Source: a virus
Strand: one strand, 5' to 3'
Virus record (IMG/VR): IMGVR_UViG_3300012954_004455
Span: 28,343-92,342 of that record
Length of the DNA stretch: 64,000 nt
The notes below the pieces were generated by a model. The model made no database searches and was not told where the DNA came from. It saw only the letters and a program-made list of their open reading frames with translations. Positions 3,297 to 58,896 of the stretch are shown piece by piece; the stretch's first letter is position 1; each line of letters starts with the position of its first letter. A program made the translations under genes and the position numbers.

Positions 3297-3336
3297 TGTC
3301 CTATCCACATCAGCGAGAAATTTATCTCTTGCTGAT
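3297..3336 (+). promoter_or_regulatory. Putative late promoter (TGTCCT...TTGC) of tape measure A
   Basis: GTCC at 3298, G of TTG at 3331, ATG at 3337; one of 10 equally spaced copies. Confidence 0.6.
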
Positions 3337-6300
3337 ATGGCGAGAAACTCAGACATAGCTCACTTAAGTGTTTTCGTGGACGGTACTCCCGTAACGAACA
3401 CGATTAAGAGCCTAGCGAAGGACTTTCGTAAGCTTAAACGGGAGGTTGAATCAACCAGTCAATCAAACGCAGATTTCCAAGAGAAGGCCAAAGAATACGG
3501 TCGCGTCCGAAATGAGTTGGTTGGACTTAGAAAAGAACTCAAACAGATAGCCTGGGAAGTTCAAGGTATCCCTGAAGACTCCATCGAGGGACTCACGAAA
3601 AGAGCGTCTCAATTGGAAGAACAGATGGGGAAGCTCTCTACGAGTTCTCAAGAGTACAAGCAAAAACTTCTGGAATATGATGAGGTAAAAAAGACGTTGG
3701 AGAGGGTCAAAGCAGAGGCTAAGGCTCTCACTGAGGTCGTTGAATCGGTTCCAAAGGACTCGATTCAAGGCATGAAAAACAGGTTGGAGGAATTGAATGA
3801 GCAACTCATCAAGGCCAAAAGGGGGGGAGAGAAGTTTGTAGCGTTATCGGCAGCCTTTAAGACTCTGTCTCAAGAAATCAAGGAAACGGAAAAGGAGGCA
3901 AAAAAGCTGGAGGAGGCCATAGAAAGCTTTCCTAAAGGAAGTCTTAAGGCAGCGGAGTCGGAGGTGAAAGAACTACGAGAAGAACTATCCAGACTTCCAG
4001 AGGAAAGTGAGGAGTTTAATTCGAAGGTACAAGAACTCAGAAATGCCGAAAAACGTTTTGATAACGTCAAGAATAAGGTGAAAGGGGTCACTGAAGCCTT
4101 CAAGACCCAGAAGGGATCAATAAAGGATTTGGAACGGGAATTCAACAAATTGAATAACGAAATCAGATCAATTAACCCAGAAACCCAAAAATTCAATGAG
4201 AAGCTGAAGGAACTGGCAAAGACTGAAAAAAGCCTCGACAGAGCGAGACGCTCTATGAACAGATTCAAAGCCTCTCAAAAGCAAAGTATTTCCATTACTC
4301 AAAGACTAGGGAAATTTATGAAAGCCAATTGGATAGCCTTAGTGGCAGTCATTGGTATGGCTATAAAGAAAGGTCTTGAATATGCCTGGCGACTCAGCCA
4401 GGAAATGGAAGAGCTCAGGGGAAAGATCAATATCCTCACGGGAGAAGTTGGGGATAGTTTAAATAAGGTCTCGGCTAGGGTCAAAGCACTTAGCAATATC
4501 TTCGAAATTTCGATAAAAGAGATATTAGAAGCGGGACAGTCTCTAAGCACAGCTTTTGGCAAAAAAATGTATGAATCCTTAGATAGCCTTGCTAAAGGAT
4601 TAATCTTGGTAGGCGACAAAGCTGGAGAACTCTTAGATCAAATCTACGAATATAGCTCCCGACTTGAAGAAGCTGGATTCATAGCATCCCAAGCTGTTGC
4701 CCTAATAGTCAATTCGATTAACATGGGGACGTTCAATGATTCCCTTGTTGATTCAGTGAAAGAACTCGATTTGCGTTTGGAACAACTGAGTGAATCCGCA
4801 AAAAATCTACTCAACTTAAAGTTTGGCAAAGAACTGACTGAACAGATATTGGCAAATTCGGGGGATACAGTTAAAGCACTCCAACTGATATCGGGAGGAA
4901 TCGCGGAACTCCTAGAAAATGGAGAAGATGTGAATGAGTTAGTTTCTGTTCTTTTTGGAGAGCCAGGCGAAAACCTTACCGCTGGGAACATTGCAAGGAT
5001 AAAGGACATGAACCTGAACCTTGATGAACTTGTGGGAACAGGTAATACATATATACAACTCAAGCAAAGGGAACTCATACTTGAGGAAAAAGCGGCTATA
5101 GCAAGTGCCTCTTTATCCCAAGAAATAGAGGGGCTTTCGGCATGGTTTAGAAGGGCAGGGAAAAACATATCGAGGTTTTTCGTCGGAGGGCTTGCCGCCA
5201 CTCTGAAATTCTTCAATTATCTTCCTGGCCGTATTAAAATATTCGGGAGCTTAATGTCTCATGCTGCTGCAAAGTTTGCGAATGCTTGGATAAAGGTCAT
5301 CAATAGAATAAGGAAATCCTTAGGGTTCGATCCAGTAAAAGAGTTTGAGGCCAGTGGGGAGAATATCCGTAACGCACGAAAGGCTTTACAAGAAAAGATT
5401 GCTAAGGATAAAAGGGATTATGAGGCATCACAAGCCGTAGAAAACCTTAAAAACATCAAGCAATACAAAGCTGCTGAAAGACTTGAGAGGGTGAAACAGG
5501 AAGTTGCAACTCAAAAGGCAGAAAGAAAAACATACAAAGAAGAGGCCGATAAGATGTCCAAGCTCAGAGCAGAATCTCAAGCAGAGATTGAGAGGTTGCA
5601 AATAGAGCTTATGGAGGACGGACTTGAGAAAAAAATAACTCTCCTTCGGTTCGAGACTCGCAAAAAAATTGAAGCTATCAAAGGAGGTCAAGCAGAAATT
5701 GAGCAATTAACCCTCTTATACGAAAAGAGGCTTGCCAAACAGATAAAAGCATTAAGAAAAGAAGAAGAAGTAGAGAACGCAGCAGCTCGTGCGAAGGATG
5801 CAAGCGAAGCCAAAGAATCACGAGATAAAGAGTACGCCCAGAGACTGGAGAGCCTAAAAAGGAGTAGAGACGAGGAAGCCCTTATAGACACACAAACCGC
5901 TGTAGAAAAAATACGTAATGGCGAAGATAGTGTAGTTGCAGAAGAGGTACTCAACCAACAGCTTCTTGACGGCCAAATAGATTTCTTGGAAGCGAAGAAA
6001 GAGCTTCAACAGGAATTCGGGATGGATTCTCTGGAAACACAGACCCAAATCGAGCAAATGAAACTCGATGAGGCAAGAAGGAGGGCTGAAGAAGAACTCG
6101 AAATCGAAAGGGAAAAAGAGGAAAAGAAGGAACAAGCAAAGCAACAAGCCCTTACAAAGACCAGGCAACTGGGACAGGCCATGACAGCCTTTTGGAAGGC
6201 TAAGTTGGATGAAGAACTAGATCTTCTCGATCAACAAAAAGAGGCTGAACTTGAAAAAGCGGGGGACAACGAGGCTGCCAGAGCTGAAATAGAGGCAAAG

Positions 6301-6918
6301 TTCCAAGAGAAAAAGGAAGAGGCTCAGAAAAAAGCAGCAAAAAAACAGAAAGGGGTATCCATAGCCAATACCCTAATAAACACGGCAGAATCTATAGTGA
6401 AGACAGGGGCTACCTTAGGATATCCCCTAGCCATTCCGTTTCAGGTCATGGCTGGGGCGATTGGAGCTCTCCAGATCGCTACTATAAGGAAACAAAAATT
6501 TGCAGACGGGGGCTTCACAGGTGAAGCACCTTGGGGAGCCGTTCCTGATGAAACGGGAGAGATTCCAGTCGGTCTAGTCCATAGACACGAATATATTGTA
6601 CCAAGGAGAGTCGTTGAAGATCCTGCTTCAATACCTCTCATAAAGTCTCTAGAACGTATGAGAAGAGGCCAAAAATTCGCGGATGGGGGCATGGCATTGG
6701 ACTCCCCTACCCTCTCCCATTCAAATATAGACGTAAACCCGTCTGACGATTCACTTGCTGCAGTAGGGCAGAAGATGGACAAAATCCATCATACCCTACA
6801 ACGGATGAGGGACGATATTCAAAACCAACGTTTGGTCTCCATAATCGGAGAAAAAGAAGCAAATGTAATTGATAAAGCACAAAAAGAACTCTACAGGAGA
6901 AGAGGGACTGCACTATGA
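3337..6918 (+). CDS. Tail tape measure protein
   Basis: 1193 aa helical/coiled-coil protein with C-terminal FADGGFTG...VHRHEYIVP motif; homolog of 42341-45352. Confidence 0.9.
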   Translation: MARNSDIAHLSVFVDGTPVTNTIKSLAKDFRKLKREVESTSQSNADFQEKAKEYGRVRNELVGLRKELKQIAWEVQGIPEDSIEGLTKRASQLEEQMGKLSTSSQEYKQKLLEYDEVKKTLERVKAEAKALTEVVESVPKDSIQGMKNRLEELNEQLIKAKRGGEKFVALSAAFKTLSQEIKETEKEAKKLEEAIESFPKGSLKAAESEVKELREELSRLPEESEEFNSKVQELRNAEKRFDNVKNKVKGVTEAFKTQKGSIKDLEREFNKLNNEIRSINPETQKFNEKLKELAKTEKSLDRARRSMNRFKASQKQSISITQRLGKFMKANWIALVAVIGMAIKKGLEYAWRLSQEMEELRGKINILTGEVGDSLNKVSARVKALSNIFEISIKEILEAGQSLSTAFGKKMYESLDSLAKGLILVGDKAGELLDQIYEYSSRLEEAGFIASQAVALIVNSINMGTFNDSLVDSVKELDLRLEQLSESAKNLLNLKFGKELTEQILANSGDTVKALQLISGGIAELLENGEDVNELVSVLFGEPGENLTAGNIARIKDMNLNLDELVGTGNTYIQLKQRELILEEKAAIASASLSQEIEGLSAWFRRAGKNISRFFVGGLAATLKFFNYLPGRIKIFGSLMSHAAAKFANAWIKVINRIRKSLGFDPVKEFEASGENIRNARKALQEKIAKDKRDYEASQAVENLKNIKQYKAAERLERVKQEVATQKAERKTYKEEADKMSKLRAESQAEIERLQIELMEDGLEKKITLLRFETRKKIEAIKGGQAEIEQLTLLYEKRLAKQIKALRKEEEVENAAARAKDASEAKESRDKEYAQRLESLKRSRDEEALIDTQTAVEKIRNGEDSVVAEEVLNQQLLDGQIDFLEAKKELQQEFGMDSLETQTQIEQMKLDEARRRAEEELEIEREKEEKKEQAKQQALTKTRQLGQAMTAFWKAKLDEELDLLDQQKEAELEKAGDNEAARAEIEAKFQEKKEEAQKKAAKKQKGVSIANTLINTAESIVKTGATLGYPLAIPFQVMAGAIGALQIATIRKQKFADGGFTGEAPWGAVPDETGEIPVGLVHRHEYIVPRRVVEDPASIPLIKSLERMRRGQKFADGGMALDSPTLSHSNIDVNPSDDSLAAVGQKMDKIHHTLQRMRDDIQNQRLVSIIGEKEANVIDKAQKELYRRRGTAL

Positions 6919-9929: not shown

Positions 9930-9967
9930 TGTCCTATTTTACGTAAGACTTGGGCGGCATCTTGCGA
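9930..9967 (+). promoter_or_regulatory. Putative late promoter upstream of portal operon A
   Basis: GTCC at 9931, G of TTG at 9964, ATG at 9968/9971. Confidence 0.6.
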
Positions 9968-10312
9968 ATGATGTCAAGAACGATACATAAAAGCCGCATC
10001 AACTACTGGCTGAATGTAGAAAAGCCAAAAGGAGGGCAACGACTGTTCTCGATGAGCATCCTCCTTCTGACAGGAGATGATCGTGGGTTTTGTCGCTTCT
10101 TCCCTTCTGTGAGGTTGTGGAAGGATGAGGATAAGGAGGAGAAGGAGAATAAAGTTCAGAAGCGAGGAGGAAGTGGATCGAAGCAGGGTAAGGGAAAGGT
10201 GAATAGAAAGCACCACGAAATGTTTACCCTATATGACACTATAGAGGAGAAAGTATTTAGAGTACACTTGAGCCAAATAAAAGAATTCAATGGACAAGAG
10301 GTCAGGCACTAA
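9968..10312 (+). CDS. Conserved small phage protein preceding portal
   Basis: Homolog of 48159-48500 (GG..FS.....RG; LYDxxxE...IKxFNGxEVxH). Confidence 0.7.
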   Translation: MMSRTIHKSRINYWLNVEKPKGGQRLFSMSILLLTGDDRGFCRFFPSVRLWKDEDKEEKENKVQKRGGSGSKQGKGKVNRKHHEMFTLYDTIEEKVFRVHLSQIKEFNGQEVRH

Positions 10313-14196: not shown

Positions 14197-14350
14197 GGTA
14201 CCTATACATATGTATTTTTATTTCCGCTCAGAACGGTTTTGTGAGATGGGGTTTTGGTGGTGTAGATGGGTGGGGAAATAAGGTAGATGTAAGCCTTTAT
14301 ACGATAAGGGGTGATATTATTTGGGTGTAATTTTGTATCATTGGGGTAAT

Positions 14351-15070
14351 ATGAAGAGGATCGAAATACCTGTGACGGCCTACGTCTCAGCGTATTTGAG
14401 ACGCAGGTATTGCTCAAGCGGGGTTTTTGATGTGAGGGGGGGAAGGGATGACTTGAGCATGGCTTTAATGGGGATCAGTGATCTCCTTATGTTGAACCCA
14501 GAATCCGAATCTTCGACCTCTCCTACCCTATCTACTGTTGTTTTGATTGTTGATGACCGACTGGCCAATGTAGCCGATATGTATCGCGAGTTTTTGCGGT
14601 ATGGGGCTTTTTTTCAGTATCAGTTTTACAAGGATTTGGTGGATTATGTAAGCTCGCAAAGAGATTTGGCGAGGGAGCAACATCTATCAAGAAAAGAATG
14701 GAATGAGAGAAAAGCTGTGCAAGCTTTTAAAAAAAAGTATAACTTGCCTATTAGTGAAGAGACACTAGTGAGGCAATATACGCGAAAAGTGGGCTGGAAA
14801 CGAAGTTTTGCTTTTAAGGAGGTGAAGGGAAGGTTTGGTTTTAATGAAGGTGATGGGCAGGTGAGGGGGAAGGCTGCAAGGCTCGTTAATGGTTTGGAGA
14901 TTTATATACGTTTTTGTGCTTACTCGCGGGCAAAGGGACGGGTTGTGGAAAGGAAGTGGCGAGTGCCTTCTTTCTTGTGTAACCAACCAGGGGATGATTG
15001 GTTGGTGTGGGCAGAGGCTCGGATCGATGTGCTAAACAAATTTTTAATAAAAGGTTTTTCAATAAAATGA
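14351..15070 (+). CDS. Putative DNA-binding regulator (candidate late activator)
   Basis: Homolog of 52148-52915 (PVTAYV, EWN/QWN.RKA.Q.F, SR..G...VP..L.NQPG); follows the palindrome in both phages. Confidence 0.55.
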   Translation: MKRIEIPVTAYVSAYLRRRYCSSGVFDVRGGRDDLSMALMGISDLLMLNPESESSTSPTLSTVVLIVDDRLANVADMYREFLRYGAFFQYQFYKDLVDYVSSQRDLAREQHLSRKEWNERKAVQAFKKKYNLPISEETLVRQYTRKVGWKRSFAFKEVKGRFGFNEGDGQVRGKAARLVNGLEIYIRFCAYSRAKGRVVERKWRVPSFLCNQPGDDWLVWAEARIDVLNKFLIKGFSIK

Positions 15071-16720: not shown

Positions 16721-16781
16721 ATGTGTGGGTGTGAGAGTGTGTGTCCGTGTGAGGGGGAAGGGGAGTGGGTATATTTGATAT

Positions 16782-17438
16782 GTGAATTTGATTCCGACAT
16801 ATCAGGCTCTGCCACCAATGATTCATCCTGGGTATGATACCTGGCATCATGGGGGGGTACGTAATACGCTGCTTCTACGGAAAGAGCGTGTTTTGAATGT
16901 ACCTGATAGCAGTGCGATAGAGGCGAGTGAAATACTACTGGATGGGGTGGGCTTCTGTTCACTTTATACGGCAGAGGATAAGGGACGGCTATCGATTGGG
17001 GTCAAGAATGGGGTTTATACGGCTAAGCTAGCTGTGTTTTCTCCTACACTGAGGGTAGAACAAGAGGGATTGGGACGGTTATCGGGAGGGCATTTTGTGG
17101 CTATTGTCCAGATGTGGACAGGGCGCATGTACCTACTCGGATGGCCAAACCCACTGGTTATTCTGAATATGATGATGGATCATGGGGGGGAAAGAAAGCA
17201 TTGGCCTGGGGTCTCTTTTGAGATGCGGTCGGATAATTTTACTTACCCAATAGAGGTCGTTAATCCTGAGGTGGTGGTACCGCCTACAGGGGGTGGAGTA
17301 GGAGGTAGTGGAACAACGCCACAGCCTCAAATGAGAACGGCTGAGGGGGATGTATATATTTCTGTGGCTAAGGATAATGATTATGAGAAACGGATAACTG
17401 CCTTGGAGCGTGCAGTAACGGGGCAATATATATCTTAA
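16782..17438 (+). CDS. Virion protein, possibly tail-tube-like fold with C-terminal coiled coil
   Basis: Homolog of 55749-56450; preceded by GTCC motif at 16743 with TATATTTG at 16770-16777. Confidence 0.55.
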   Translation: MNLIPTYQALPPMIHPGYDTWHHGGVRNTLLLRKERVLNVPDSSAIEASEILLDGVGFCSLYTAEDKGRLSIGVKNGVYTAKLAVFSPTLRVEQEGLGRLSGGHFVAIVQMWTGRMYLLGWPNPLVILNMMMDHGGERKHWPGVSFEMRSDNFTYPIEVVNPEVVVPPTGGGVGGSGTTPQPQMRTAEGDVYISVAKDNDYEKRITALERAVTGQYIS

Positions 17439-18503: not shown

Positions 18504-18538
18504 TCTAGGTTTGAGTTGTATGTGAAATTGTGAAATTA

Positions 18539-22103: not shown

Positions 22104-22261
22104 ATTATGAACGTGAAGATATGTAAGCACGCTGGCTTCTACCCAACCGTGTGGACGGCTCCTTAGGGGGTCGTTTTCTTTTTTTGTCCTTAGTTTTTTG
22201 GGGGTAGATAGGGAGGTTTGGGTCACTATTATTTTTTCTGTTATTCATGTTTAACTAAACG

Positions 22262-22495
22262 ATGATCAATATGGTAGGGTTTATTTTATTGACGACTTTG
22301 AGTGGTGTGCCGCAAGCGGCTAAGGATCAAATAGAGGCGAAGGCTAAGGAGCATGTGGAGAATCTCCAGAAGGGAATGGAAGCTGCTGAGAGCTATGAGG
22401 CTAAGGAGCTGATGATCTTGGAGATGGGGCTGAATTTGGCGCAGTACAAGCTACGGCAGGCTCAAGAGATGATTAAGGCTGTGGCTGGAGAATAA
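22262..22495 (+). CDS. Small hypothetical protein
   Basis: 77 aa ORF with its own GTCC...TTTG motif (22186-22220) and downstream terminator. Confidence 0.55.
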   Translation: MINMVGFILLTTLSGVPQAAKDQIEAKAKEHVENLQKGMEAAESYEAKELMILEMGLNLAQYKLRQAQEMIKAVAGE

Positions 22496-25540: not shown

Positions 25541-25594
25541 GTAGGTGTTTTAGCCCAAAAACATACAGATCTGTTGGCTTTCGGTTTTTTAAAA

Positions 25595-25669
25595 CTATAT
25601 TTGTATCCGTAAGCAGATACAAATCTACAATTGTGTCTTTGTTATTACAAAAGTGAGACACTTTTGTAA
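25595..25669. promoter_or_regulatory. Lysis-lysogeny switch: overlapping opposed promoters and operators
   Basis: TATATTTG (+) and TAGATTTG (-) flank the palindrome at 25600-25623; TTACAAAAGTG-N3-CACTTTTGTAA at 25645-25669. Confidence 0.78.
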
Positions 25670-28699: not shown

Positions 28700-28892
28700 A
28701 TATACTACACGTCCAGTAGCTCTCGCTAGCCAAAGCACAGAGTAAGTACGATTAGATCGTACCCTGGACCTCTTTTGTCCTCAATTTGCCCCGAGCGTTT
28801 GAGGAATTTGTGGGGCAGACAAAAGGCACAAGACAAAAACAAAGACCAGTTGGAAGGGGGATCTCGGGAGATCCCCCTAAAATTTCAAAACT

Positions 28893-31800
28893 ATGCCAAG
28901 AATATCAAGACGTTCTATTGATGCCATATACTCTGCTGACAACCTCGTTAACATTATAGGGACGGTTGTAAAACTAAAAAACAGCGGAGCTACTCTGTCA
29001 GGGAAATCCCCCTTTAAAAGCGAGAGAACAGCTTCTTTCATGTTAAACCCTCGTAAAAAGGTTTGGAAATGTTTCTCGACTGGAATTGGTGGCTCAAACT
29101 CAATCCAATTTCTTATGGAGTTGGAGGGATTGAGCTATCCAGAAGCAATAAAAAAAGCTGCAGGAATTCTTGGCATAACGATCGAATACGAAGGGGGGGA
29201 TTCTGGCTCAAGCCAAAACCTAGAATACAAGCGAAAGAAAGAACTAGCCGATCGTTTAGAGCAAACAGCCATCTACTTCGGAGAAAGCCTGAAAGAAGGA
29301 TCTCCTGCATCTAAATTCCTCTTAAAAGCGTTCTCAGAGCGTCTTAATGACGAAGTAATAGAGGATTTCCAGATAGGATTCGCGAAAAAAGGATTCCTGC
29401 AGGAATTGAAAGCCGACGGAACCATCAGCGCAACGAAAGGAACAGGCATCCTTAAGGCTTTTGAGAATAGACTGATATTTCCCATACACAACAGTTGGGG
29501 GCAAGTAGTGGGGTTTGGCGCACGCATCATACCCAACGATCCAAAGCCCACACCAGGCAAATACATAAACTCTCCCGAAACCATCCTCTATAAAAAAAAG
29601 GAAAGCCTATATAACCTGAACAGGGCTAGGAGAACGATAATCAAAGAAGATAACACTTTCCTGGTCGAAGGCTATTTCGATGTTATTGCCATGCACAAAG
29701 CAGGGATACATAATGTAGCCGCTCCTTGTGGAACAGCATTAACAGAAAAGCAGATAGGGCTATTAAAACCACTCGGAAGAAGCATAACCATATGCTTCGA
29801 CGGGGATAAGGAAGGCCAAAAGGCGACAGCAAGAGCTCTACTTCTCTGCTTAGAAGCTGGCTTGATGCCTAAAGTTGTAGCCTTAGAAGGCCAAGATCCT
29901 GAAGATTTCCTCTCCGACAAGGAACAAGAAAAAAAACAGGAAGCCATCAACAACCTAACCGTTTCTTGGTTGGAATGGCTATGGGGGTTCATAAAGAAAA
30001 GTTCAAATACTTGGCAGACTCAAGATCGTATTGAGGCTGTCCAGAAAATTCAAAAGGAATATCTAGCTAAAATCGAAAACCAGCTCCTACGAGAAGAACT
30101 CCTCCTCGATCTCGAAAAAGCATCGGGAATCCCCATCGAATCGCTCCAAGGAGAAGACTTCTGGGAAAAGAGCACCTGGTTGAACTTCATCGCTCTTTGT
30201 GATCGATTGAAAATCAGCAGGGAAAACGAAGATTTCGCACCAGGGGAAGAAAACACCATTTCTATATACAGAAGGAATCTGAAAGGAAAGATTACCCATA
30301 GTAGAAAGACATCCGACCAAGTAGTCAGTTATGGGGTATACCAGCCCCAAAAGCTAAGAAAAGCCAAAACACTAGGACAAATCCTTTTCCCTGGTCAATA
30401 CAGGGAGGATTCGCTTTTTATGGTCGTAGACGAGGTGCTTGCTTACGTTCTAACCGAATTGGGAGTTCCCTCGATAGGCATATCTCACATAGCTGGCTGG
30501 AAAACGGCACCCGACGGCAAGAAACTTCATCCCTCTCTAAAGGCGGCTCTAGCAGGATACAGAGAACTTATCTTTCTAGTCCCTTCACAACTTTGGGAGA
30601 TCGCCGAAGGGGAAGAAGATAGCAGCTCTGTAATGAGTGAATCGGAAGAAGGGATCTTCGGCCTTATCACGGCACTCCAAGAAAGCGAACTTGAAGTAAA
30701 TTTGAAATTGCTGTTCCCAAGAAAACCCACAGCAAGAACACAATCGCGATTCGTAGAAAAGAAACTCCTGGAATGGTATCAAGCAGTTACAGATCCCAAG
30801 GGGCGGCTGATTCGCAACCTGGACCTCAGTAGAGATCAGAAATCCCAAGTTTTCACATTGAGAACCGTGGGCTATAACAGCCAAAAGAGTATTCGTGACT
30901 GGCTAGGGATAGATTCTCCAGACGATTGGAGAGAAATCCATCAACTGACATCCGATTTTGTGTTCCGTGGAACACAGTACAAGATATCTCCTACAACGGG
31001 GGATATCAGTATCGCGAAAACGAAAAACGAAATATCTTCTCTTTGGGAGGAAAATGGCATGTACCATATAAAGAAAGGGGCTCGTAATTCGGAATCAATA
31101 AGCAACTTCACTTTCATAGATTGGCGACTCAAAATAACGGATGGAGTCGATCAGAAAGGGATGTTTCTGTTTCGGCGTTTTGATCGTCGGGATAAGTTCA
31201 GAATACTCATATCTTCCGAAGATTGGTTAAGCCCCAAGAGCTTAATCAAAAAGTTCCAAGCATACCCAAAAGCAAACCTCTCTTTCAAAGGTAGCGGCCA
31301 AGATCTCCTAGCTGTATATCACCTCTTGACTAAGAAAAACCCAAAGGAAGCAGAGCAAGTAAATAAAGCAGGTTGGGATAGTTCGCGGAATATATGGATT
31401 TGGGGTGGCGGTGGCTATACAACCCTGGAGGGGAAGTTCCATCCTGTAGACTCGGAAGGCACAGCCGACTGGGAAGGAACCAAGTTGTTTTGGCCCGGAG
31501 TCAGCAAACTGATCCCGAAAAAGGAACGAGAGAAGTACAAAGCCATGTCGATTATGGAACATCGAGGGAAGGCAGATGTAAACTTCTCCAGTTGGGTCGA
31601 ACGGTTTAGCTCCGTATATGAAAAGGGACTAACTGGAATCATCTTTCTGCTAGGAACCATAAACGTACACATAATAGAAAAGAAGCTCCGTAAATACCCT
31701 GTCTTGCTTCTTACCGCTCCAAACAAGTTTGGGAAATCGGAATGGGTAGAAAGTCTAGGGGCAATTGCTCCCGTTATGACGCTCAACCATGGATCTGGAG

Positions 31801-41786: not shown

Positions 41787-42307
41787 GTCAGAAGATGAGC
41801 AGCGGAGACCAGCAAAGATTCCTGCAGGAAACAATTGCCGAATGGGTAGTTTACGCCCGTAAGGTCATAAGCAGGAATTTGGAATTAGCAGGAGATCACG
41901 CGCCCGATATCAAAGACAACATCAATTTTGATATTCAAGTGGCTGGCGATTTCGCCAACGTCCAGATATCATTTCCAGACGCAGGACGGTTTGTCGATAT
42001 AAAGGTCAAAGAATGGAGAAAAAGACCGCCTATTGCTCCTATTCAAAAATGGGTAAAAGAGCATAGGAAACGGATTAGGAAGACGCCTGGCTACGGAGAG
42101 AAAGCAAATATCCCTCGCAGCAAGAAAATAGCGAGAGTGGCATCAGCCATCCTATTCGCAAAAACCCAAAAACCCACCAAGCGCAAAAAGCGTTGGTGGA
42201 ACAAGTCGATTTTCTACCTAGTCGAAGTACTCCGAGGAATGCTTCAACGAAATCAGGCTGCTTGGATGAAGGCGCAACTCAAATCCAACCTCCAAAACAA
42301 GTCCTAA
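41783..42307 (+). CDS. Basic neck/tail-completion protein
   Basis: GRFVD..RPPIAPIQKWV; homolog of 2740-3288. Confidence 0.55.
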   Translation: MSQKMSSGDQQRFLQETIAEWVVYARKVISRNLELAGDHAPDIKDNINFDIQVAGDFANVQISFPDAGRFVDIKVKEWRKRPPIAPIQKWVKEHRKRIRKTPGYGEKANIPRSKKIARVASAILFAKTQKPTKRKKRWWNKSIFYLVEVLRGMLQRNQAAWMKAQLKSNLQNKS

Positions 42308-42340
42308 GTAAAAAAGCAGGCTCTAGATAACTATGCGTCT

Positions 42341-45300
42341 ATGAGCTTGAGAAAAGACGAGATACACTTTGATTTACATATCAATGGTGAGCAAATAACA
42401 GACACCTTTGGTGACTTAAAGAAAAAAGCCAAGCAACTACGAAGGGAGTTGAACGGCCTTAAACCAGGGACAGAAGCCTTTGTAAAGAAGGCAAAGGAGC
42501 TTGCCAAAGTAGAAGATCAAATAAAGGGGGTCAAGACCCAAATGAAATCCTTTCGTACAGGTCAGGCTAAGGCAGCGAAAGGCTTTCTGAATATCGGCAA
42601 ATTAGCTGGGGCTTTAGGCCCCATAATGCTTGCCGTTTTTTCCATACAAGCGATAACCGAATTCGCACAGCACATTGCACAAATCGCTGGAGAATTCAAC
42701 GAGCTTAGGGAAACGGTAAATGCCTTCTCAGGGGAAAGTGGAGACGCGCTCAACAAAACGACAGCCAAAGCGAAAGCGATGGCTGATACCTTTGATGTTG
42801 ATGTAAACGAAATACTCGAAGCCACCAATGCAGCCAGTGCAGAATTCGGAATAGGCTTCGATGAAGCCCTAAACCTAGTCCAAAAAGGTCTCCTAGCAAC
42901 AAAAACAAAACACGGGGATTACATCGCCCAAATTTCCGAATACTCAACTCAGTTCAAAGACATGGGTTATACGGCTGAAGAGGCTTTTGCCATCATCAGC
43001 CAAGGTCAGAATATGGGAGTCTTTTCGGATAAAGCTCCTGATGCAATCAAGGAATTCAAACTCCGTCTCAACGACCTTACAAAAGCGCAACACGATTTAA
43101 TCAAAGATAACTTTGGAGAGAAGTTCGCTGCACAAATCGCAGATGGGAGCCTCTCCAGTATTGACGCACTCAAGGGAGTATCCCAAGGGATGCGGGACAT
43201 TAAAGCAGCAGGAGGAAACCTGCAGCCAATAATAACGAACCTATTTGGAGGAGCTGGAGAAGATGCAGGAGAAAGATACCTACTCTCCCTCGCAGACATA
43301 GACACCAACCTAGACAATCTCATAGATACAGGGAACATCTTCATCCAACAAAAGCAGGAGGAGATGCAAGCCCAAGAGGATCTCAACCTCGAATATGCCA
43401 GATTAGGCGAATCTCTCCAAGGTGTAGGACACTGGTTCAAAATGCTATGGAATACCACAAAGTTGGTGTTCTTCAGAATGACCAACGCAGCAATAAGCTT
43501 CTTCAGATTTTGGCCAGAAAAGTGGGGCGTATTCAAGGAACAAGCCAAGAATTCTATGAAGAGCCTCTACAACTATCTGATAGGGCCAATAGAAGACGCG
43601 CTAAACTACTTCCGAGGGCTAACAGGTTTGGCTAAGGTAGATCTCAAAGCAGACATAGACACCAGTGGTTTAGATCAAGCAAAAGAGAATCTGAAAAGTC
43701 GGTTAGAGCAAAACCAAAAAGAAATTGAAGCGTACCAGGTACGCAAAACAATGGAGAGTGCAGGCAAGGTGGAAGAGGCTAATCGAGTCGCCACATTAAA
43801 CGAAAGAGCCAAAAGCAACAAAGAGTACAGAAAACGCTTCAAAGAAGATCAGGAGAAGCTCAAAAAGGAAGTGGTAGCAGCAGCAGCCAATATCGAACGG
43901 CTGCGTATAGCCTCTATGGAAGAGGGGAAGGAGAAAGAAATTGCTCTGCGTAAGCTTCGACACGCTGAACAAATATCCAAACTAAAAGGGAATGCTTCCC
44001 AGATAAGAGAACAGACCAGGCTATTAGAAGAGCAGAAACGAAAAGATCTGCTTGCCATACAGGATAAATACGACGAGGAAGAAGAGAAACAAGAAGAGAC
44101 GAAAAGTTTGGCCAAAAGCCATATCGCCCAAAAACGATTCGAGCGGGATATCCGACTGCTTGAGGAAAGAAGAAGGCGAAAGGTTTATGAAGCAAACCTG
44201 GATGTTCTTGAGGATGTCAAGGCGGGCAAGTCTGTTGAAGAAGTCGAAGCGAACCTAAAAGATCGACTTTTGGGGATAGAAAAAGATTACTTCGAAGACA
44301 AAAAGAGCCTCCAGCAGGGATTCCTCAAGGAACAAATTCAAAACCTCAAATCCGAAGCAGAAGAACGGAAGAATGCGATTGCCGATTCTGATAAAGATGT
44401 AGCCAATAAGAGGCTAGAGATAGAGATTGACCTACAAAACCAAATTGCTGCATTACAAGCTGACTTCACTTCGACTAAAGAAGCTATACTCAATCAAGAG
44501 ATTGACCAGGAAAAAGCCGCCGCCGATAAGAGGCTGAAAATACGCCAGGAAACGAAGGAGAAGCTCCAGAACATGGAAGCGGCAATGCTATCCTCGGTTA
44601 AGTCGGCCTTGGATGCTTGGGAAACATTCTCGCAAAATAGTGCGGATAAACGCCTAAATGCCTTAGAAGCCAGAAAAGCGAAAGAGTTGAAATTGGCAGG
44701 AGGCAATGAGGCTAGAAAGGCCAAAATCGAGAAAAAGTATAACAAAGAACGGGAAAAGATAGAGACGGCACAGAACGAAAGGTCTAAAAAGATTGCAAAA
44801 GCGCGGGCACTAGTAAATACCTACGAATCGGTAACAAAAACATATGCACAGTTCGGATTCCCTTGGGGAATTCCTGCTGCAGCTGCTGCCTTTGCGCTTG
44901 GTATCGCCAATGTGATGAAGATCGAAAAGTCAATGGCAGAAGGAGGCCCTACAGGCAAAGCCCCCTTTGGCACAATTGCCGATTCGAGCGGAGAAAAGCC
45001 AATCGGCTTGATCCGAGCTCATGAACATGAATGGATAGCCCCCCGCTGGATGGTGCAATCGCCTCAATATGGCCCTTTGATTCAAGAAATGGAGGGAATC
45101 AGAATAAGAGGCTACGCAGAAGGAGGTTTCCCAAGCTCCTCCCCTACTCCATCAGCGAGAATCGAAACGCCTCTCCCTTCTGAAAGTGCGCTTCTCAGTA
45201 TCAGGCTGCTCGAAGAAGTCAGTATGAAGCAAAGCCAAATAATCAGGCTTTTGAGCAATCCCCAATTTGTTACCATCTATGGAGAACGGGAATACCAAAT

Positions 45301-48500: not shown

Positions 48501-48550
48501 TCCTCCTAGCTTGTCCTTCTTGTTCAGAACCATTTGAGACACCTTGCAGT

Positions 48551-49876
48551 ATGGATCAACAATTCAAGGCAATAGATTTCGGGATATCTGGCAAGAACAT
48601 CAAAGTTCTTGCTCAAGGTACAGTTGCTAGGACGGACGAGGATCTCGTGCGTCCAAAACTTCGAGGTACCAGTCTCGCAATAACGAGCATTAGACCTGTA
48701 CATTCTCGTGTTGTTCCTTGGTTCCAAGGCGCGAATAATATGCCTGAAGAGTTGATAAATCTTGCTTCAGGTAACCCAATATTGCTTGGACTATTATTAA
48801 CCAAAGCGCAAGTTCTTCATGGAAGCGGGCTATGCCTCCATACCATCGGGATGGATGGGGAAGTCGTGCAATTGCCGCGAAATAAATGGCCTGAAGAAAT
48901 ACGGGACTTCTTCGACTATAACCAACTGAATAAGACCAGTTACCTCTTACTCGTAGACTACCTATTAACGGGGAATGCTTTCATGCAAATGATCCCTACC
49001 AAGGGATCAGCGAGACACCCCAAAAAGATCATTGAGGTGACACGCATTCAACCTGGTTGCGTTAGGATCTTACGGCCTGAAAATGGGCAGGAGATTCAGG
49101 AGTATGTTGTAGCGGGAGAATGGCAAGGGACAGCGAGCGATCTAAGCAGAGTCATTCCTGCATTCAGACGAAAGGCATTTTTCCAGAAGGAGCAGAACGG
49201 GTATAAGTTCAAAGAAGGATCTGGGAGTTGGACGGAAGCCTTGCTCCATATCAAAGTTGAGACAACTGGCTATCCCTACTATGGGATACCATTCTGGAGA
49301 GGGGCGGCCGATTCTGTCAGGTTACAGAATGTAATACCTCATCTGCATTTATCGAATCTCCTCAATGGATTTGGGGCGCGTGTAAGTGCCCAAATCTCGG
49401 ATCGGTACATCAATACTAAACGAAACGAAACGAATCCAGAGACGAATAAAGCTTACTCAGATCAGGAGATTATACAACAGGTAGGCAAGATGATTCAGGA
49501 GCTCTTGACGAGACCTGAGAACGTGGGCAAAACCTTGGTCACGGGTTTCATGACAGACCATCAAGGCAAACGCATTCCTGATATCGTAATCGAGAAAATT
49601 GCCTTCGATTTTGGCGATAAGCTCTATACGAAGCTAGAGCCTTTGATAAATGAGAAGGTTTCGGCCTCTGTGGGGCTATTACCGCACCTTAGCGGGCTTT
49701 TTAAGCAAGGATCAATGTCAAGTGGTAGTGAGATTAAATACGCTTGGGAGGCGCAAAAAAGCCTCTCTAGTATTGATCGGTCGCTAATACTAGAGCCATT
49801 GAATTTTATTCTTCGATACAATGGATTTGGGGAGAAGTATTTCTGGGATTTCCCTATACCCTCAATAATAGAATAG
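48551..49876 (+). CDS. Probable portal protein
   Basis: Homolog of 10290-11654; GTCC motif at 48513. Confidence 0.75.
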   Translation: MDQQFKAIDFGISGKNIKVLAQGTVARTDEDLVRPKLRGTSLAITSIRPVHSRVVPWFQGANNMPEELINLASGNPILLGLLLTKAQVLHGSGLCLHTIGMDGEVVQLPRNKWPEEIRDFFDYNQLNKTSYLLLVDYLLTGNAFMQMIPTKGSARHPKKIIEVTRIQPGCVRILRPENGQEIQEYVVAGEWQGTASDLSRVIPAFRRKAFFQKEQNGYKFKEGSGSWTEALLHIKVETTGYPYYGIPFWRGAADSVRLQNVIPHLHLSNLLNGFGARVSAQISDRYINTKRNETNPETNKAYSDQEIIQQVGKMIQELLTRPENVGKTLVTGFMTDHQGKRIPDIVIEKIAFDFGDKLYTKLEPLINEKVSASVGLLPHLSGLFKQGSMSSGSEIKYAWEAQKSLSSIDRSLILEPLNFILRYNGFGEKYFWDFPIPSIIE

Positions 49877-51154: not shown

Positions 51155-51193
51155 GTAGGTTATAGTTTGAGAACGTTTGTCATGTATGTGACC

Positions 51194-51229
51194 AGCCTGT
51201 AGATCTGAAAGGATTTGCAGGCTTTTTTT
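51194..51229 (+). terminator. Intrinsic terminator
   Basis: GCCTGTAGATC/GATTTGCAGGC stem plus T7. Confidence 0.75.
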
Positions 51230-51373
51230 ATGCCCAATAGGAGCGAAAAACGGAGCTCTACCCTAGCCTACGGAATACATACGTATTTATACGTAATTAC
51301 TTCAAAACAAGTACGGATTTAGCCTCGTATATATGCGCGCATTTAGGGTTCACGCTTCGCCTATTTTTTCGAA

Positions 51374-51740: not shown

Positions 51741-52147
51741 GGTAAAAAAAAGGGGAAATGCGATCCTAAGACGCGAGTGGTGTTAAGACACTTATTCCTC
51801 TATATATCAGCCTTTTAGGCGGGTTTTTGCTAAAAACGCCTATTTACTTACTAAATTCGTATAATATTGAGGCAAAAACGGTTTTTTAGGCAATTTTAGG
51901 CTTAATTGACAGATAATCAGGAACTTATGGCATTATGAGCGAGGCGACTGATTAAAGACATTGATATAGTACGGTTTCTCGTAGATCTTGGATTTTAACA
52001 AAATCGCCAACTGTTTGCCAAACAGTTCAAACATGAGATTTCGTATTTTTGCAATAATACTACGAGTTTCGATTGATTTTTAGGCTAAAATTGGCTGATT
52101 TTATTACATCGCTTCGTTTTTGCGAGGTATCGTAATAAATTAGGGTA

Positions 52148-52915
52148 ATGAGCGAAAATAACTACAACTTACCCCCAACAATAACGCCCCCCAAAATCGT
52201 CAAAGTACCCGTAACGGCTTATGTATATAAGTGGTTACGATCGAAGTTTGGCCCCTTGAATAGCTACGACCTTGATTACAGAGGAAATGGAGAACTCAAG
52301 AAGGCTCTGAGAGGTTTACCCCTCAACTGGACAATCGTTACGGAAATCAACCCTCTCCCCTATTATCATGTCAATCTGGTGCTGGGTAGGAATGAAGAGC
52401 TGATATCAAACTACGAGGAGCTAAAGCCCTTCATTACGGCTGGAGCCTTGTTTCAGCATGAATTCTTTTCGGCTTTCCTAGCCTATAAGGATGGACAGGA
52501 ACAACTAGCGAAGCAGCTAGGACTAACTAAGAGTCAATGGAACACCCGTAAGGCTATACAGAGCTTTTGCCAGACGCATAATATAGGAGCTGATGAGTAT
52601 GATAGGGAGAGTTTTGAGCGTCATATGCGAAGAAAAAAACATGATATTTCTCATTTCGTGTCGCACGTCACACAGAAATGGGAGTTCCAAAACGATGGGA
52701 ACCTTCTGTATGTGCCTGCAAGGGTATACATAGGCAAAAAACCTTATATAGGATTCCAATGTTTTTCACGAAGTAGAGGAACGATGAGGCGGGTTCAAGG
52801 CTGGGTACCTAAGACTCTCCTGAACCAACCAGGCGCGATCGATTGGAAAATGTGGGCAACCCTGATGGTCGAAAGCATAAACATATTGTTAAGAAAGGGT
52901 TGCAGTATTGCATAA
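52148..52915 (+). CDS. Putative DNA-binding regulator (candidate late activator)
   Basis: Homolog of 14351-15070. Confidence 0.55.
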   Translation: MSENNYNLPPTITPPKIVKVPVTAYVYKWLRSKFGPLNSYDLDYRGNGELKKALRGLPLNWTIVTEINPLPYYHVNLVLGRNEELISNYEELKPFITAGALFQHEFFSAFLAYKDGQEQLAKQLGLTKSQWNTRKAIQSFCQTHNIGADEYDRESFERHMRRKKHDISHFVSHVTQKWEFQNDGNLLYVPARVYIGKKPYIGFQCFSRSRGTMRRVQGWVPKTLLNQPGAIDWKMWATLMVESINILLRKGCSIA

Positions 52916-53906: not shown

Positions 53907-53951
53907 TTTTGTATCCGCTGTTGGATACAAAATGGATTTTTGTTATGTTTG
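53907..53951 (+). promoter_or_regulatory. Operator variant plus -7 promoter
   Basis: TTTTGTATCC-GCTGTT-GGATACAAAA followed by TATGTTTG (53944-53951). Confidence 0.65.
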
Positions 53952-55706: not shown

Positions 55707-55748
55707 GTGTCCTGATTTTAGGGAAGTCTCTGCATTATCTTTGATTCA

Positions 55749-56450
55749 ATGGGAGTAATGAAGAGATATAGACCAAGGGGCCTTGCACGTCTCCAGCCTG
55801 GATTCGAACCAGGATCGATAAAGGAGGTATGGATTATCCGTAAGGAGGATGTGCAGAAAATCCCGTATTCTCCGAACCTGGATGCCGCTGCAATCGAGCT
55901 TGTTGATGGCGCATCCTTCTCCCATTATGAATTTGGTAGGGATACCGTACACCTAAAAGAAGTTCAAAAGACGAGTGAAAAAGGGACGATTTATGATATC
56001 AGTTTGGTATCAAAATACCACGGAAGAAACACCATAACTGATCAAGAAATAAACCGCTTAGGGGGCGGTTTATTCATCATATTTACCATGGATTTCTTGG
56101 GTAGAATCAAGCTTTTGGGGAGACGAGAAAGCCCAATGAAGCTCATTTCTGTGAGCATAGATTCAGGGAAAAAGACGAAAAACGGACAGGGATCGACTTG
56201 GAAATTTGTAGGGATGGGCTTGGAGATCTCTCCGAGTATTTTTGTGAGATCGGCCACAGGAACCAGTACAGGTTCAGTCAGCGGCACACCAACCAACCCT
56301 AATGACCCGAATACGGTAGTTGTTTCAACAGGACAAGGCCGTTATTCTTACGTGAATAATGAGGCGATCCAAGGATTTTATCAGGATCTCTTACAACGTG
56401 TGATAGACCTAGAGAACACGGCTAGGGGAGAAGGAGGCAATTTTATTTAA
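55749..56450 (+). CDS. Virion protein, possibly tail-tube-like fold
   Basis: Homolog of 16782-17438; GTCC motif at 55709. Confidence 0.55.
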   Translation: MGVMKRYRPRGLARLQPGFEPGSIKEVWIIRKEDVQKIPYSPNLDAAAIELVDGASFSHYEFGRDTVHLKEVQKTSEKGTIYDISLVSKYHGRNTITDQEINRLGGGLFIIFTMDFLGRIKLLGRRESPMKLISVSIDSGKKTKNGQGSTWKFVGMGLEISPSIFVRSATGTSTGSVSGTPTNPNDPNTVVVSTGQGRYSYVNNEAIQGFYQDLLQRVIDLENTARGEGGNFI

Positions 56451-57486: not shown

Positions 57487-57563
57487 GGTAGGTTTCAGTG
57501 AATTTGGGCACGAAAAAAGGAGACTCCTTACGGGGTCTCCTTCCTTGTTTTTATGGGTTGTGG

Positions 57564-57971
57564 CTAGAGCTTTACTAGCTGGACTTCTCCGTTGTAACCG
57601 AAGATATCTTTGGCGGCCTTCTTGAGCTTTTCTTGGTATTCTTGTATGACTTTGAAAGGAATAGCTCCTACTTGTGGGTCATCAGATCCGAAAATCGGAC
57701 ATCCCCACCAAGCCTTTGTAATCCCCTCTACAGCCGAACATTCAACTGGACAATCGGTCGGGAGCAACCATCCGAAAGTTGAATCGAAGGGACTATTGTC
57801 TATTAGCGCGGCGGTGCTTTTGGCTCCTAAAATCGAGGGGCGTTTTATGTGCTTGTAGCGAACCCGATTCTGCTTCTCATGATTCTTGACGTTTGGGTTC
57901 TGGGTATCGGATACAACCTCTACCTGGTCGAATTCTAGGACTTCCCGAATGGGTATTGCGAGTATAAGCAT
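57564..57971 (-). CDS. Conserved antisense-oriented hypothetical protein
   Basis: Homolog of 18567-18932; hairpin 57517-57542 between the convergent genes. Confidence 0.6.
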   Translation of the reverse strand: MLILAIPIREVLEFDQVEVVSDTQNPNVKNHEKQNRVRYKHIKRPSILGAKSTAALIDNSPFDSTFGWLLPTDCPVECSAVEGITKAWWGCPIFGSDDPQVGAIPFKVIQEYQEKLKKAAKDIFGYNGEVQLVKL

Positions 57972-58074
57972 GTCTGTTCTTTTGGTACAAAGATCGGTAG
58001 AGAGGGCTTTGGTTTCAATGGGATGCTGCATTGTGTCCTCTGTATAGAATCGGGTAGAGGGGTTCTTGCAGGTA

Positions 58075-58896
58075 ATGAATCTGAATCTATATAATACGAA
58101 TCGGCCATTTCTTATTGGGAGAACAGCAGGAGAAAGGTTAATCAGGCTATCTAATGCATTCCTGGAGAAACCAAGCCTTTACACAGAGATTGAGAAATAT
58201 GCTCATTACTCTGCACATCCTGTATATCAAGAGGAGTATGGACAACGGGAGGAGATTGGGTTCATTGGAGTGATCTCAGTGCGGGGAACTCTCTACCACC
58301 AAGAGACCTGGTGTAGTGATGGGATGATTCAAATGATGGAGACAGTTCAGGCATTGGATGAAGAAGAGAAATGCTTGGGGATAGTCCTGGACATGACAAC
58401 ACCAGGGGGGGAGGCTGCAGGGACGGAGGCTTTCGCGAACGTGGTAGCGAACGCGCAAAAGCCAGTTGTTGGGTTCATCCGTAGTTATTGCCTTTCAGCT
58501 GGGTATGCAGTCATTGCTGGAGCAGATTATATTATGGCTGATGGTGAAACGGCTGAAGCAGGTTCCATCGGAACTTGTATTGTTTATGTCGATGCCTCTG
58601 AAGCGATGAAGAAAGAGGGGTATAAAAGAGTGATGATCGTTTCGGACTTATCGCCGAATAAGAACAATCTGAATTTCGAGAACCCAAGCGAAAAGGACAA
58701 AGCACAGATTAGGGAACAAGTCTTAAACCCACTTACAAAGTGGTTCCAAGGTCATGTAAAATCACATAGATCGAAAGTAACCGAAGAGGCTCTCCTAGGG
58801 GGAGTCTCTTTGGGCAATTCTGCTATAGAACATGGGCTAGTAGATGGCCTGGGATCGTATGAGGAAGCAATAAAAAAGGTACTAGAACTATCATGA
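58075..58896 (+). CDS. S49 prohead protease
   Basis: LDMTTPGGE, LSAGY and GSIG motifs; GTCC motif at 58035. Confidence 0.9.
   Translation: MNLNLYNTNRPFLIGRTAGERLIRLSNAFLEKPSLYTEIEKYAHYSAHPVYQEEYGQREEIGFIGVISVRGTLYHQETWCSDGMIQMMETVQALDEEEKCLGIVLDMTTPGGEAAGTEAFANVVANAQKPVVGFIRSYCLSAGYAVIAGADYIMADGETAEAGSIGTCIVYVDASEAMKKEGYKRVMIVSDLSPNKNNLNFENPSEKDKAQIREQVLNPLTKWFQGHVKSHRSKVTEEALLGGVSLGNSAIEHGLVDGLGSYEEAIKKVLELS

Follow-up and report, generated by a model that had tools for sequence, protein, structure and literature searches.

In the window analysed here, a stretch of 64,000 nucleotides in which two prophages, A and B, lie side by side in one uncultured marine Bacteroidota genome (phylum assigned from the neighbouring fumC gene), we found a recurrent motif that is best read as an activator-dependent (or alternative-sigma) late promoter class giving largely leaderless mRNAs. 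A and B are only distantly related, and the same motif stands ahead of their orthologous virion modules despite only 21-37% identity between the proteins of these modules, a placement that supports the shared promoter class proposed in the initial annotation. Bacteroidota phages shape gut and marine communities, and to our knowledge their transcription control, crAss-like phages aside, is almost unstudied; no description of this promoter class was found in the literature searched. A signature of this kind would make it possible to annotate the late operons of thousands of uncultured phages, together with their true start codons, and the TGTCCT promoter could potentially serve as an inducible, phage-specific part for Bacteroides and flavobacterial genetics.

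The sites and their geometry

All ten sites claimed at the outset hold (T)GTCC(T/G), with TTG or ATG 33-34 nt further on, G to G. In the following list position 1 is the G of GTCC, and the predicted transcription start is position 40.

3297..3339, + strand: promoter A2; TGTCCT, TTGC box; tape measure ATG at position 40
9930..9973, + strand: promoter A3; TGTCCT, TTGC box; consecutive ATGs, positions 38 and 41; downstream unit, a small ORF and the portal
16742..16784, + strand: promoter A4; variant TGTCCG, full TAtaTTTG box; GTG at position 40; downstream genes of 218 and 349 aa
18982..19024, + strand: promoter A5; TGTCCT, TTGC box; S49 head protease ATG at position 40
22185..22264, + strand: promoter A6; TGTCCT, TTTG box; leader of ~36 nt, then a 77-aa ORF
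28776..28895, + strand: promoter B1; TGTCCT, TTGT box; leader of ~77 nt with a perfect hairpin inside; downstream unit, the primase operon (28893-32852 and onward)
42300..42343, + strand: promoter B2; AGTCCT, TAacTATG box (one mismatch); tape measure ATG at position 41
48512..48553, + strand: promoter B3; TGTCCT, TTGC box; portal ATG at position 39
55708..55751, + strand: promoter B4; T-run then TGTCCT, full TAtcTTTG box; ATG at position 41; downstream genes of 233 and 339 aa
58034..58077, + strand: promoter B5; TGTCCT, TTGC box; S49 head protease ATG at position 41

One more site, the eleventh, is at contig base 26733 (window position -1609, that is, 1,609 bases before the window), and none was seen in the 12 kb of host flank scanned. 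The modules behind the sites are the tape measure, the portal unit, the S49 protease/capsid block and, in B, the primase, whose operon is indeed headed by the additional B site noted earlier. The gene after the 3297..3339 site matches tape measure PHROGs, the portal of A is homologous to Leef_1 gp6 and BT-TP2 gp28, and the portal-unit site of B is displaced downstream by one gene relative to that of A. The sites at 16742..16784 and 55708..55751 are orthologous. The claim that the same modules are served in both phages stands for tape measure, portal and S49 protease/capsid, whereas the label 'tube-like/fibre' has as its sole basis weak tail-fibre PHROG matches of 17454-18503 and 56467-57486. 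The word 'late' suits the virion modules but not in a strict sense, since the primase operon of B is also headed by the motif.

The observation is far beyond chance. The + strand has 12 copies of GTCC-N27/28-TTG and 0-1 copies at each other gap from 20 to 39; for the stricter GTCCT-N26-TT(GY|TG) there are 8 copies at gap 26 and 0-2 at gaps 14-41. The observed count, summed over both strands, was reached in 0 of 100 dinucleotide shuffles. GTCCT itself has 16 sense-strand copies in A and B together versus 56 on the opposite strand, and in prophage A five of the six sense copies, counted by eye, are sites.

The downstream half of the motif has the same sequence and frame as the Bacteroidota -7 box. 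Of the 23 sites in phages A-E, 21 read TTTG or TTGY at positions 32-35, and the other two have TATG (42301) and TTGA (D 38982). An A stands at position 29 (-11) in at least 70% of the 44 sites of the consensus, with the T of 'TA' poorly conserved. A G-to-G spacing of 33 pairs with TTGY and one of 34 with TTTG, and therefore the frame of the 8-base box is fixed; the spacing that had been described as 33-34 nt is present, but it is not variable. By the same token, what had been taken as a degenerate TTG-type element is a host-type -7 box, with its A at -11 and its TTTG or TTGY, and not merely a TTG. In Flavobacterium psychrophilum this box takes the forms TAnnTTTG and TAnnTTGY and was mapped at -12 to -5 (PMC9723704), which puts TGTCCT at -40 to -35 and the predicted start at position 40. 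Positions -34 to -32 have zero conservation in the A-D sites, the -33 TTG being absent, and none of the TGTCCT sites matches the pattern TTG-N18-20-TAnnTTTG. The conserved TGTCCT box is single and asymmetric, and the 44-site consensus contains no conserved partner half-site.

The start codon peaks sharply at position 40 among 47 intergenic sites of 13 phages and lies at positions 38-43 in 27 of them; it is ATG in 26 of these 27, the exception being the GTG at 16782, a codon from which leaderless initiation is inefficient in the systems investigated. In A and B, it follows the G of TTG by 3-6 nt at eight of the ten sites, the number given originally, and longer leaders are found at 22186 (~36 nt) and 28777 (~77 nt). 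The start of transcription is therefore predicted to coincide with the start codon of most units or to lie no more than 3 nt from it, in agreement with the leaderless geometry first suggested, and the best reading of these distances is that the class gives largely leaderless mRNAs. BT-TP2 and G005 have 12-20-nt leaders at most sites, and therefore leaderlessness would not be intrinsic to the promoter class. Among host mRNAs, leaderless and near-leaderless ones make up only 3.7-5.5% (PMC9723704, PMC7366714), whereas the start codons of the TGTCCT class lie mostly at the predicted +1. Piled up in this way, they could mark a naturally occurring collection of leaderless mRNAs from a phylum without Shine-Dalgarno initiation.

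Transcription units and occurrence in other phages

Several sites are directly preceded by terminators:

18538-18565: terminator upstream of the A5 site (18982)
22153-22176: terminator directly before the A6 site (22185)
57517-57542: terminator upstream of the B5 site (58034)

The sites at 3298, 42301 and 48513 lie in short gaps without an upstream terminator, and therefore read-through transcripts with internal, non-leaderless starts may coexist with those beginning at the motif. Canonical promoters of the type TTG-N18-20-TAnnTTTG were seen only at operator-bearing early units, as exemplified by B:

25574..25623, + strand: canonical early promoter of B, TTG-N19-TATATTTG

Directly downstream of it lies the operator TTGTATC-N8-GATACAA, with further copies at 24981, 53921 and 61282.

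The shared regulon described for A and B is not private to them. The same sites, with a diverged spacer, are present in C, D and E, metagenomic relatives whose portals are 35-38% identical, the motif is kept in distant phages whose TerL is 22-29% identical, and cultured Polaribacter, Cellulophaga and Bacteroides phages also carry it. Furthermore, in the cultured phages Leef_1, Ingeline_1 and BT-TP2 independently annotated gene starts lie at position 40. Judging from these genomes, the class belongs to a wide lineage of Bacteroidota siphoviruses and not to A and B alone. TGTCCT is common to phages of hosts as far apart as Bacteroides and Polaribacter, and Flavobacterium phage laban6-1 has TGTCAC at the identical position (five of its seven sense copies); together these two observations argue for a reader specified by the phage.

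How the sites may be read

We consider it likely that the sites form a phage-specific promoter class activated by a phage protein, through the following mechanism taken as a whole. Host RNA polymerase with its primary sigma would read the -7 box, and because the -33 contact is missing we infer that it could not use these promoters alone. A phage-encoded protein, made after derepression, would bind the asymmetric TGTCCT beside sigma region 4 and the -33 position and would recruit or stabilise polymerase. Each virion module would then be its own unit, often with a terminator directly upstream, as would the replication operon of B, and the transcripts of most units would begin at or 0-3 nt from the AUG and be translated leaderless. 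Translation in this phylum proceeds without Shine-Dalgarno pairing. Because the box is shared, induction of either prophage should also activate the virion genes of its neighbour, so that this contig, with two tandem prophages and one promoter class, predicts cross-induction; with a regulon that is lineage-wide, the cross-activation first proposed for this pair would be a general property of the lineage. The question raised is which protein redirects a polymerase whose sigma reads -33 and -7 elements, and how, and it can be put to the test with cultured phages such as BT-TP2 in B. thetaiotaomicron, Leef_1 and Ingeline_1.

An alternative sigma, phage-encoded or of the host ECF type, could instead read the whole site without any activator, TGTCCT being its -35-like and TTTG/TTGY its -10-like element. 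Sigma region 4 does read short asymmetric boxes near -35, the F. psychrophilum TAnnTTGY class (SM5) has an undefined reader (PMC9723704), and Leef_1, Ingeline_1 and laban6-1 have a ~195-aa 'LuxR family' protein before the primase gene, the LuxR-type helix-turn-helix being related to sigma region 4. However, no relative of these LuxR-type proteins could be detected in A, B or D, and no Sigma70_r2, Sigma70_r4 or GerE domain below E 0.01 was present among the 25 of 39 Pfam families listed for the 85 A/B proteins, nor in the early proteins of B and D, save for a match of 0.043 in a Cro-like protein. Moreover, the distance from TGTCCT to the TA of the -7 box is ~22 bp, against 18-20 in the phages' canonical promoters, and the downstream box retains the primary-sigma signature (A at -11, TTTG). 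We therefore regard a sigma of this kind as unlikely.

TGTCCT might also be bound by a regulator of the host, such as an activator that responds to stress, and virion expression would then be tied to a host signal. This would account for one box serving phages of both Bacteroidia and Flavobacteriia hosts, and no universally conserved early phage regulator was recognised. Yet the different box of laban6-1 at the same position and the site-free 12 kb of host flank speak against such a regulator, no such motif class appears in the global start-site studies of B. thetaiotaomicron (PMC7366714) and F. psychrophilum (PMC9723704), and with a constitutive reader supplied by the host, lysogens would express their virion genes, all of which makes this explanation quite improbable. 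Least credible of all, and in our view very improbable, is that the motif is not a promoter at all, being a site for a repressor or a packaging or replication protein, or an RNA-level processing or translation signal in polycistronic transcripts, as the tight link to start codons and the three sites in short gaps without a terminator might suggest, because its downstream half is the host -7 box in sequence and frame, several sites come directly after terminators, the spacers of C and D have drifted apart freely and show no hint of a conserved RNA fold, and the leaders of 12-77 nt at some sites tie the motif to a fixed DNA geometry and not to the start codon.

A candidate reader and known systems

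For the activator that we favour, the best candidate is a lineage-wide protein family, the one pointed to in the initial annotation:

14321..15070, + strand: candidate reader of prophage A, 249 aa (or 236-239 aa); own transcription unit, no TGTCCT promoter
52148..52915, + strand: candidate reader of prophage B, 255-aa orthologue with 32% identity; model pLDDT 90

The family is a core gene: every motif-bearing phage in the comparison encodes a member immediately before the head module (elsewhere Leef_1 gp39, Ingeline_1 gp41 and BT-TP2 gp8). It lacks a TGTCCT promoter of its own and is annotated by neither Pfam nor PHROG. Co-occurrence with the motif is expected of any core gene in the lineage. 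In the model of the 52148 N-domain (pLDDT 91) one chain contains two strand-helix-helix units, the first with strand 2-8 and helices 10-20 and 31-46, the second with strand 59-66 and helices 69-82 and 86-109. Its best structural matches by two aligners are F-plasmid TraY (9f0x_E; 85 residues aligned, rmsd 3.1) and MJ0366 (2efv; 73/82 residues), both weak, with a Z of 6.0 that lies inside the range the tool calls common for unrelated folds; Foldseek ranked them 1st and 6th, at a weak E of 1.3-3. AvtR of an archaeal virus (4hv0) follows with a weak Z of 3.8, and sequence similarity to all three is nil. A TraY-like double ribbon-helix-helix fold is thus weakly supported by modelling. Single-chain double ribbon-helix-helix proteins bind asymmetric sites as monomers, and such a predicted N-domain would suit one asymmetric 6-bp site. 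On the other hand, phages with the same TGTCCT box differ in the first beta-strand of the protein, which is at odds with a simple scheme of one strand reading one box. We regard the family as the most likely reader of TGTCCT, a candidate with an unproven role, and this as a lead, not proof.

Taking these elements jointly, we tentatively hypothesise that, across a large lineage of temperate siphoviruses of Bacteroidota, late genes are switched on by a dedicated and hitherto unrecognised protein family with a double ribbon-helix-helix N-domain. Bound at -40 to -35 to TGTCCT, or to TGTCAC in phages of the laban type, the protein would make up for the absent -33 contact of the primary sigma, which is unusual in Bacteroidota, and launch leaderless virion mRNAs, and prophages of the lineage residing together could be activated in trans. 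Such a joint reading is possible, though doubtful as a whole.

Several known systems resemble parts of this arrangement. The middle promoters of T4 combine a MotA box with a host -10 and are read by MotA with AsiA ('sigma appropriation'), MotA being a monomeric phage activator whose box is centred near -30. The TGTCCT class likewise keeps a host -10-type element, replaces the -35-type element with a short asymmetric box and has many copies scattered over the genome; unlike in T4, its box is centred near -37 (-40 to -35), the host sigma is of the Bacteroidota type and the phages are temperate siphoviruses. MotA and AsiA are not among the 25 of 39 Pfam families listed for the 85 A/B proteins. 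In P2, 186 and P4 (Ogr, B, Delta) and in Mu (C, Mor), late operons each have an activator-dependent promoter with a poor -35, and, as with P4 and P2, one co-resident element can activate the late genes of another in trans. Several separate late operons with one promoter type in a temperate phage are common to those phages and ours, whereas Ogr dyads centred near -55 and C sites at ~-30 to -55 are read by dimers, and TGTCCT is one asymmetric 6-bp box with no dyad; no zinc-finger protein of the Ogr type was seen here. Thermus phages (phiYS40, Lalka27a) reportedly have leaderless middle and late mRNAs and are similar in that a promoter class puts the predicted start on the start codon of many virion genes, in another host phylum and with other promoter elements.

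Compared with Bacteroidota primary-sigma promoters, which have -33 TTTG and -7 TAnnTTTG (Bayley 2000 as cited in PMC7366714) and in F. psychrophilum comprise the classes SM1-3 and SM5 (PMC9723704), the TGTCCT class shares the A at -11 and a TTTG/TTGY ending at -5 in the same frame, but has no -33 TTG, with TGTCCT lying 3-5 bp further upstream; the prophages' own early promoters are canonical examples. Finally, unlike TraY, AvtR and MJ0366, the candidate reader family has an extra helical part, plus a C-terminal beta domain in A-D.

The TGTCCT sites and their predicted promoter frame

We found that the sites described by the initial annotation, copies of GTCC followed at a set distance by a TTG-type element, are real: all of its coordinates proved correct on re-reading of the sequence, and an eleventh site precedes the window, at -1609. 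Its interpretation of these sites, in which a phage activator binds GTCC and virion genes are translated from leaderless transcripts, is partly supported. The + strand has 12 copies of GTCC-N27/28-TTG, compared with 0-1 at every other gap from 20 to 39, and the stricter pattern GTCCT-N26-TT(GY|TG) occurs 8 times at gap 26, compared with 0-2 at gaps 14-41. Chance was controlled for by sequence shuffles as well as by this gap offset, and the observed motif count was reached by none of the shuffles. Sense-strand GTCC is about two-fold rarer than the Markov expectation in the two prophages, A and B, and in their metagenomic relative D; in A, 5 of the 6 sense-strand copies of GTCCT, counted by eye, are sites.

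The spacing of 33 or 34 nt noted initially holds in that both distances are seen, but it does not reflect a variable spacer: the two distances are two forms of one 8-base box. If the G of GTCC is numbered 1, TTTG or TTGY occupies positions 32-35 at 21 of the 23 sites in phages A-E (C, D and E being metagenomic relatives); the exceptions are 42301, with TATG, and D 38982, with TTGA. In Flavobacterium psychrophilum, mapped start sites place both TAnnTTTG and TAnnTTGY at -12 to -5 (PMC9723704), so that TGTCCT spans -40 to -35, with position 40 as the predicted +1. The consensus of 44 sites from nine phages consists of a T-run, TGTCCT, a T-rich segment, an unconserved spacer, an A at -11 and then TTtG, and a TTG at -33 is found at none of the TGTCCT sites. 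Judged by sequence, the TGTCCT sites are a form of the Bacteroidota sigma-A promoter in which the defining -33 element is missing. A sigma-54 reading of TTGC was rejected in a by-eye check, since a GG lies 10 nt upstream of the GC in only two sites, by chance.

We took as the start the first start codon opening an ORF of at least 45 codons, and applied this to 47 intergenic sites from 13 phages. The start codon falls at position 40 in 14 of them and at 38-43 in 27, and a second group at 52-60 corresponds to the ordinary short leader of the phylum. Starts at 38-43 account for 18 of 23 sites in A-E and for only 1 of 5 in Bacteroides phage BT-TP2. Leaders shorter than 10 nt are found in only 3.7% of Bacteroides thetaiotaomicron mRNAs (PMC7366714), and leaderless mRNAs make up only 5.5% in F. 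psychrophilum (PMC9723704). The pile-up of start codons on the predicted +1 would be hard to explain unless transcription begins there.

Prophage layout and two classes of promoter

The viral record is 92,342 bp long and classed as a provirus, with the window covering its bases 28343-92342. Its left end is host DNA, carrying a class II fumarate hydratase (fumC), whose closest named relatives, at 79-82% identity, are almost all Bacteroidota MAGs, and three large paralogous genes. These paralogues lie in tandem at contig bases 89-10595, before the window, encode 934-1117 aa with 60-69% mutual identity, and adjoin fumC at the prophage A junction. The two prophages follow the host DNA head to tail, and show gene-for-gene synteny at a protein identity of only 21-37%.

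Extent of the two prophages
Contig's repressor/cro region to integrase at window 22560-23828: prophage A
Triple repressor at 24112-25540 to integrase from 62747 onward: prophage B

GC skew on the coding strand is about 0.3 in A (1-24000), a very strong excess of G over C, and near 0.05 in B (24000-64000); the promoter spacers of A are filled by G-runs. Window segment 48400-58300 is present in only two marine metagenome DNA runs, which may be the source of the record, and among the runs listed for it none was an RNA run.

The canonical promoter, TTG-N18-20-TAnnTTTG, is limited to seven sense-strand copies in A and B together. They fall within the immunity and early regions, to which B adds copies at 53921 and 61282; each of the four canonical copies in B carries the operator TTGTATC-N8-GATACAA.

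Operators and terminators
25008-25029, 25601-25622, 53909-53930 and 61308-61329: B operator copies, each at a canonical TTG-N-TAnnTTTG promoter
15254-15273: A's own operator copy, before 15338
18538-18565 and 22153-22176: strong terminators ending preceding units in A
57517-57542: strong terminator ending the preceding unit in B

The immunity operator of B recurs within the virion region, ahead of 54105/54499 and of 61430/61720, each time at a canonical promoter. The units behind these copies, like the one at 15338 in A, are therefore probably repressor-controlled early genes amid late genes. T-runs adjoin the TGTCCT box at 28777 and 55709. The arrangement would set repressor-controlled canonical early promoters against separate middle or late units, each of which would require something extra.

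In both prophages the fibre-like unit's terminator is separated from the protease promoter by 400-490 nt without a convincing + strand gene (18566-18982 in A, 57543-58034 in B); each gap holds only a minus-strand ORF, of 136 aa and 155 aa, with no mutual similarity detected. The primase operon of B has a leader of about 77 nt (28816-28892), in which a hairpin with perfect pairing, GGGGGATCTC GGGA GATCCCCC, immediately precedes the start codon; this hairpin may serve for attenuation or for protein binding. Two orthologous internal genes, 21177 (A) and 60336 (B), are preceded by AGGAGG-type Shine-Dalgarno-like words (21160-21176 and 60318-60335), unusual for a Bacteroidota host.

Conservation of the motif in other phages

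Relatives were located with a 7-row portal profile and a 3-row TerL profile; a single TerL or portal protein, or a two-row alignment, gave no loci in viral or genome contigs as query. The portal profile yielded metagenomic relatives at 35-38% identity, among them D, a complete 40-kb phage, and its relative C. These carry the motif ahead of their orthologous blocks for tape measure, portal unit and capsid. In D there are seven to eight copies, each on the gene strand, and a comparison of C with D shows diverged spacers but conserved TGTCCTAY, -7 box and ATG. The TerL profile reached phages at only 22-29% identity, most of which carry the motif. It is also present in the cultured Polaribacter phage Leef_1, Cellulophaga phage Ingeline_1 and Bacteroides phage BT-TP2, where position 40 coincides exactly with several gene starts that were annotated independently. 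TGTCCT is absent from Flavobacterium phage laban6-1. A variant box, aTGTCACAA, takes its place there: of 7 sense copies of TGTCAC, 5 are exactly as far from TTTG as TGTCCT is in the other phages.

Variant sites
10121, 19190, 26973, 30994 and 32736 of laban6-1 (L039): TGTCAC sites, before tape measure, portal-unit, protease/capsid-region and lysis genes

A 34-mer, GTCCTTGTGGGCCGGTTGCACCAGCTGGGCCTTG, is repeated on the non-gene strand of D (G001) at 62-95, 332-365 and 40272-40305, near both record ends; it is no promoter site but a chance match to the search pattern, and is probably part of a terminal or tandem repeat.

Known systems and candidate readers of the box

In T4 middle and P2/Mu late promoters an activator box takes the place of the -35 element and the host -10-type element is kept. 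The TGTCCT promoters resemble them in working design but fall outside both classes on box position and symmetry; as for proteins, MotA and AsiA are absent from the 25 Pfam families listed (of 39) for 85 proteins of A and B. We found no description of a Bacteroidota phage late promoter of this kind in the literature searched. New here are the fixed frame tied to two forms of the -7 box, the start-codon histogram, the setting of TGTCCT sites against operator-controlled canonical promoters, the TGTCAC variant box and a specific family as a possible reader. The interest of the finding lies in that direct tests are now possible, because cultured phage-host pairs exist.

Candidate reader genes
14321-15070 (A) and 52148-52915 (B): small protein family, 52 representatives at 50% identity
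15338-16687 (A) and 54499-55641 (B): membrane protein whose C-terminal end resembles a helix-turn-helix

Neither a sigma-factor domain nor that of a known late activator was recognised among the 25 Pfam families listed (of 39) for 85 proteins of A and B, or in the early proteins of B and D. The 14321/52148 family, the candidate of the initial annotation, is a lead for the reader. A profile search finds members in C, D, Leef_1 (gp39), Ingeline_1 (gp41), laban6-1 (gp042) and three further phages (G003, G005, G007); BT-TP2 gp8, labelled a transcriptional regulator by its depositors, was missed by the profile at E 0.01 and joins through a local MAFFT alignment only. In C, D, Leef_1, Ingeline_1, laban6-1 and BT-TP2 the family gene is found just ahead of the head module. 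It is never headed by a TGTCCT site, and in A it forms its own short unit with 13849-14115, closed by a terminator. Pfam and PHROGs hold no annotation for the family, the ESM Atlas gives matches to 'hypothetical protein' clusters only, and Foldseek gave no match for the full-length model. AlphaFold gave models of high confidence (pLDDT 90 and 91), with the N-terminal 95 residues modelled as two strand-helix-helix units. For these, two aligners give TraY of the F plasmid (chain identity checked) and MJ0366 as best matches, with the viral regulator AvtR ranking lower. As the scores are weak (Z 6.0, Foldseek E > 1), this likeness is a lead only. The most divergent N-domain is that of laban6-1, paired with the variant box, one data point for the family as reader; the first strand varies among phages sharing TGTCCT, which counts against it.

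The membrane protein, our second candidate, is operator-controlled, and in A, B and D its gene immediately precedes a site. The remaining motif-bearing phages gave no relative of it, even at E 1, and a protein restricted to A, B and D is unlikely to be the reader of a box shared across the lineage. The LuxR-type proteins encoded by Leef_1, Ingeline_1 and laban6-1 were rejected, since none has a relative in A, B or D.

Ahead of the 14321/52148 family gene lies a non-coding stretch of 0.5-1.1 kb in B, C/D, BT-TP2 and Leef_1.

Non-coding stretches
51155-52147: B
3331-4424: C (L003)
4906-5500: BT-TP2 (L040)
28999-29520: Leef_1 (L037)

The stretch in B contains TTTTGTTAAAA repeats spaced 21 bp apart at 51470-51542, iteron-like in appearance.
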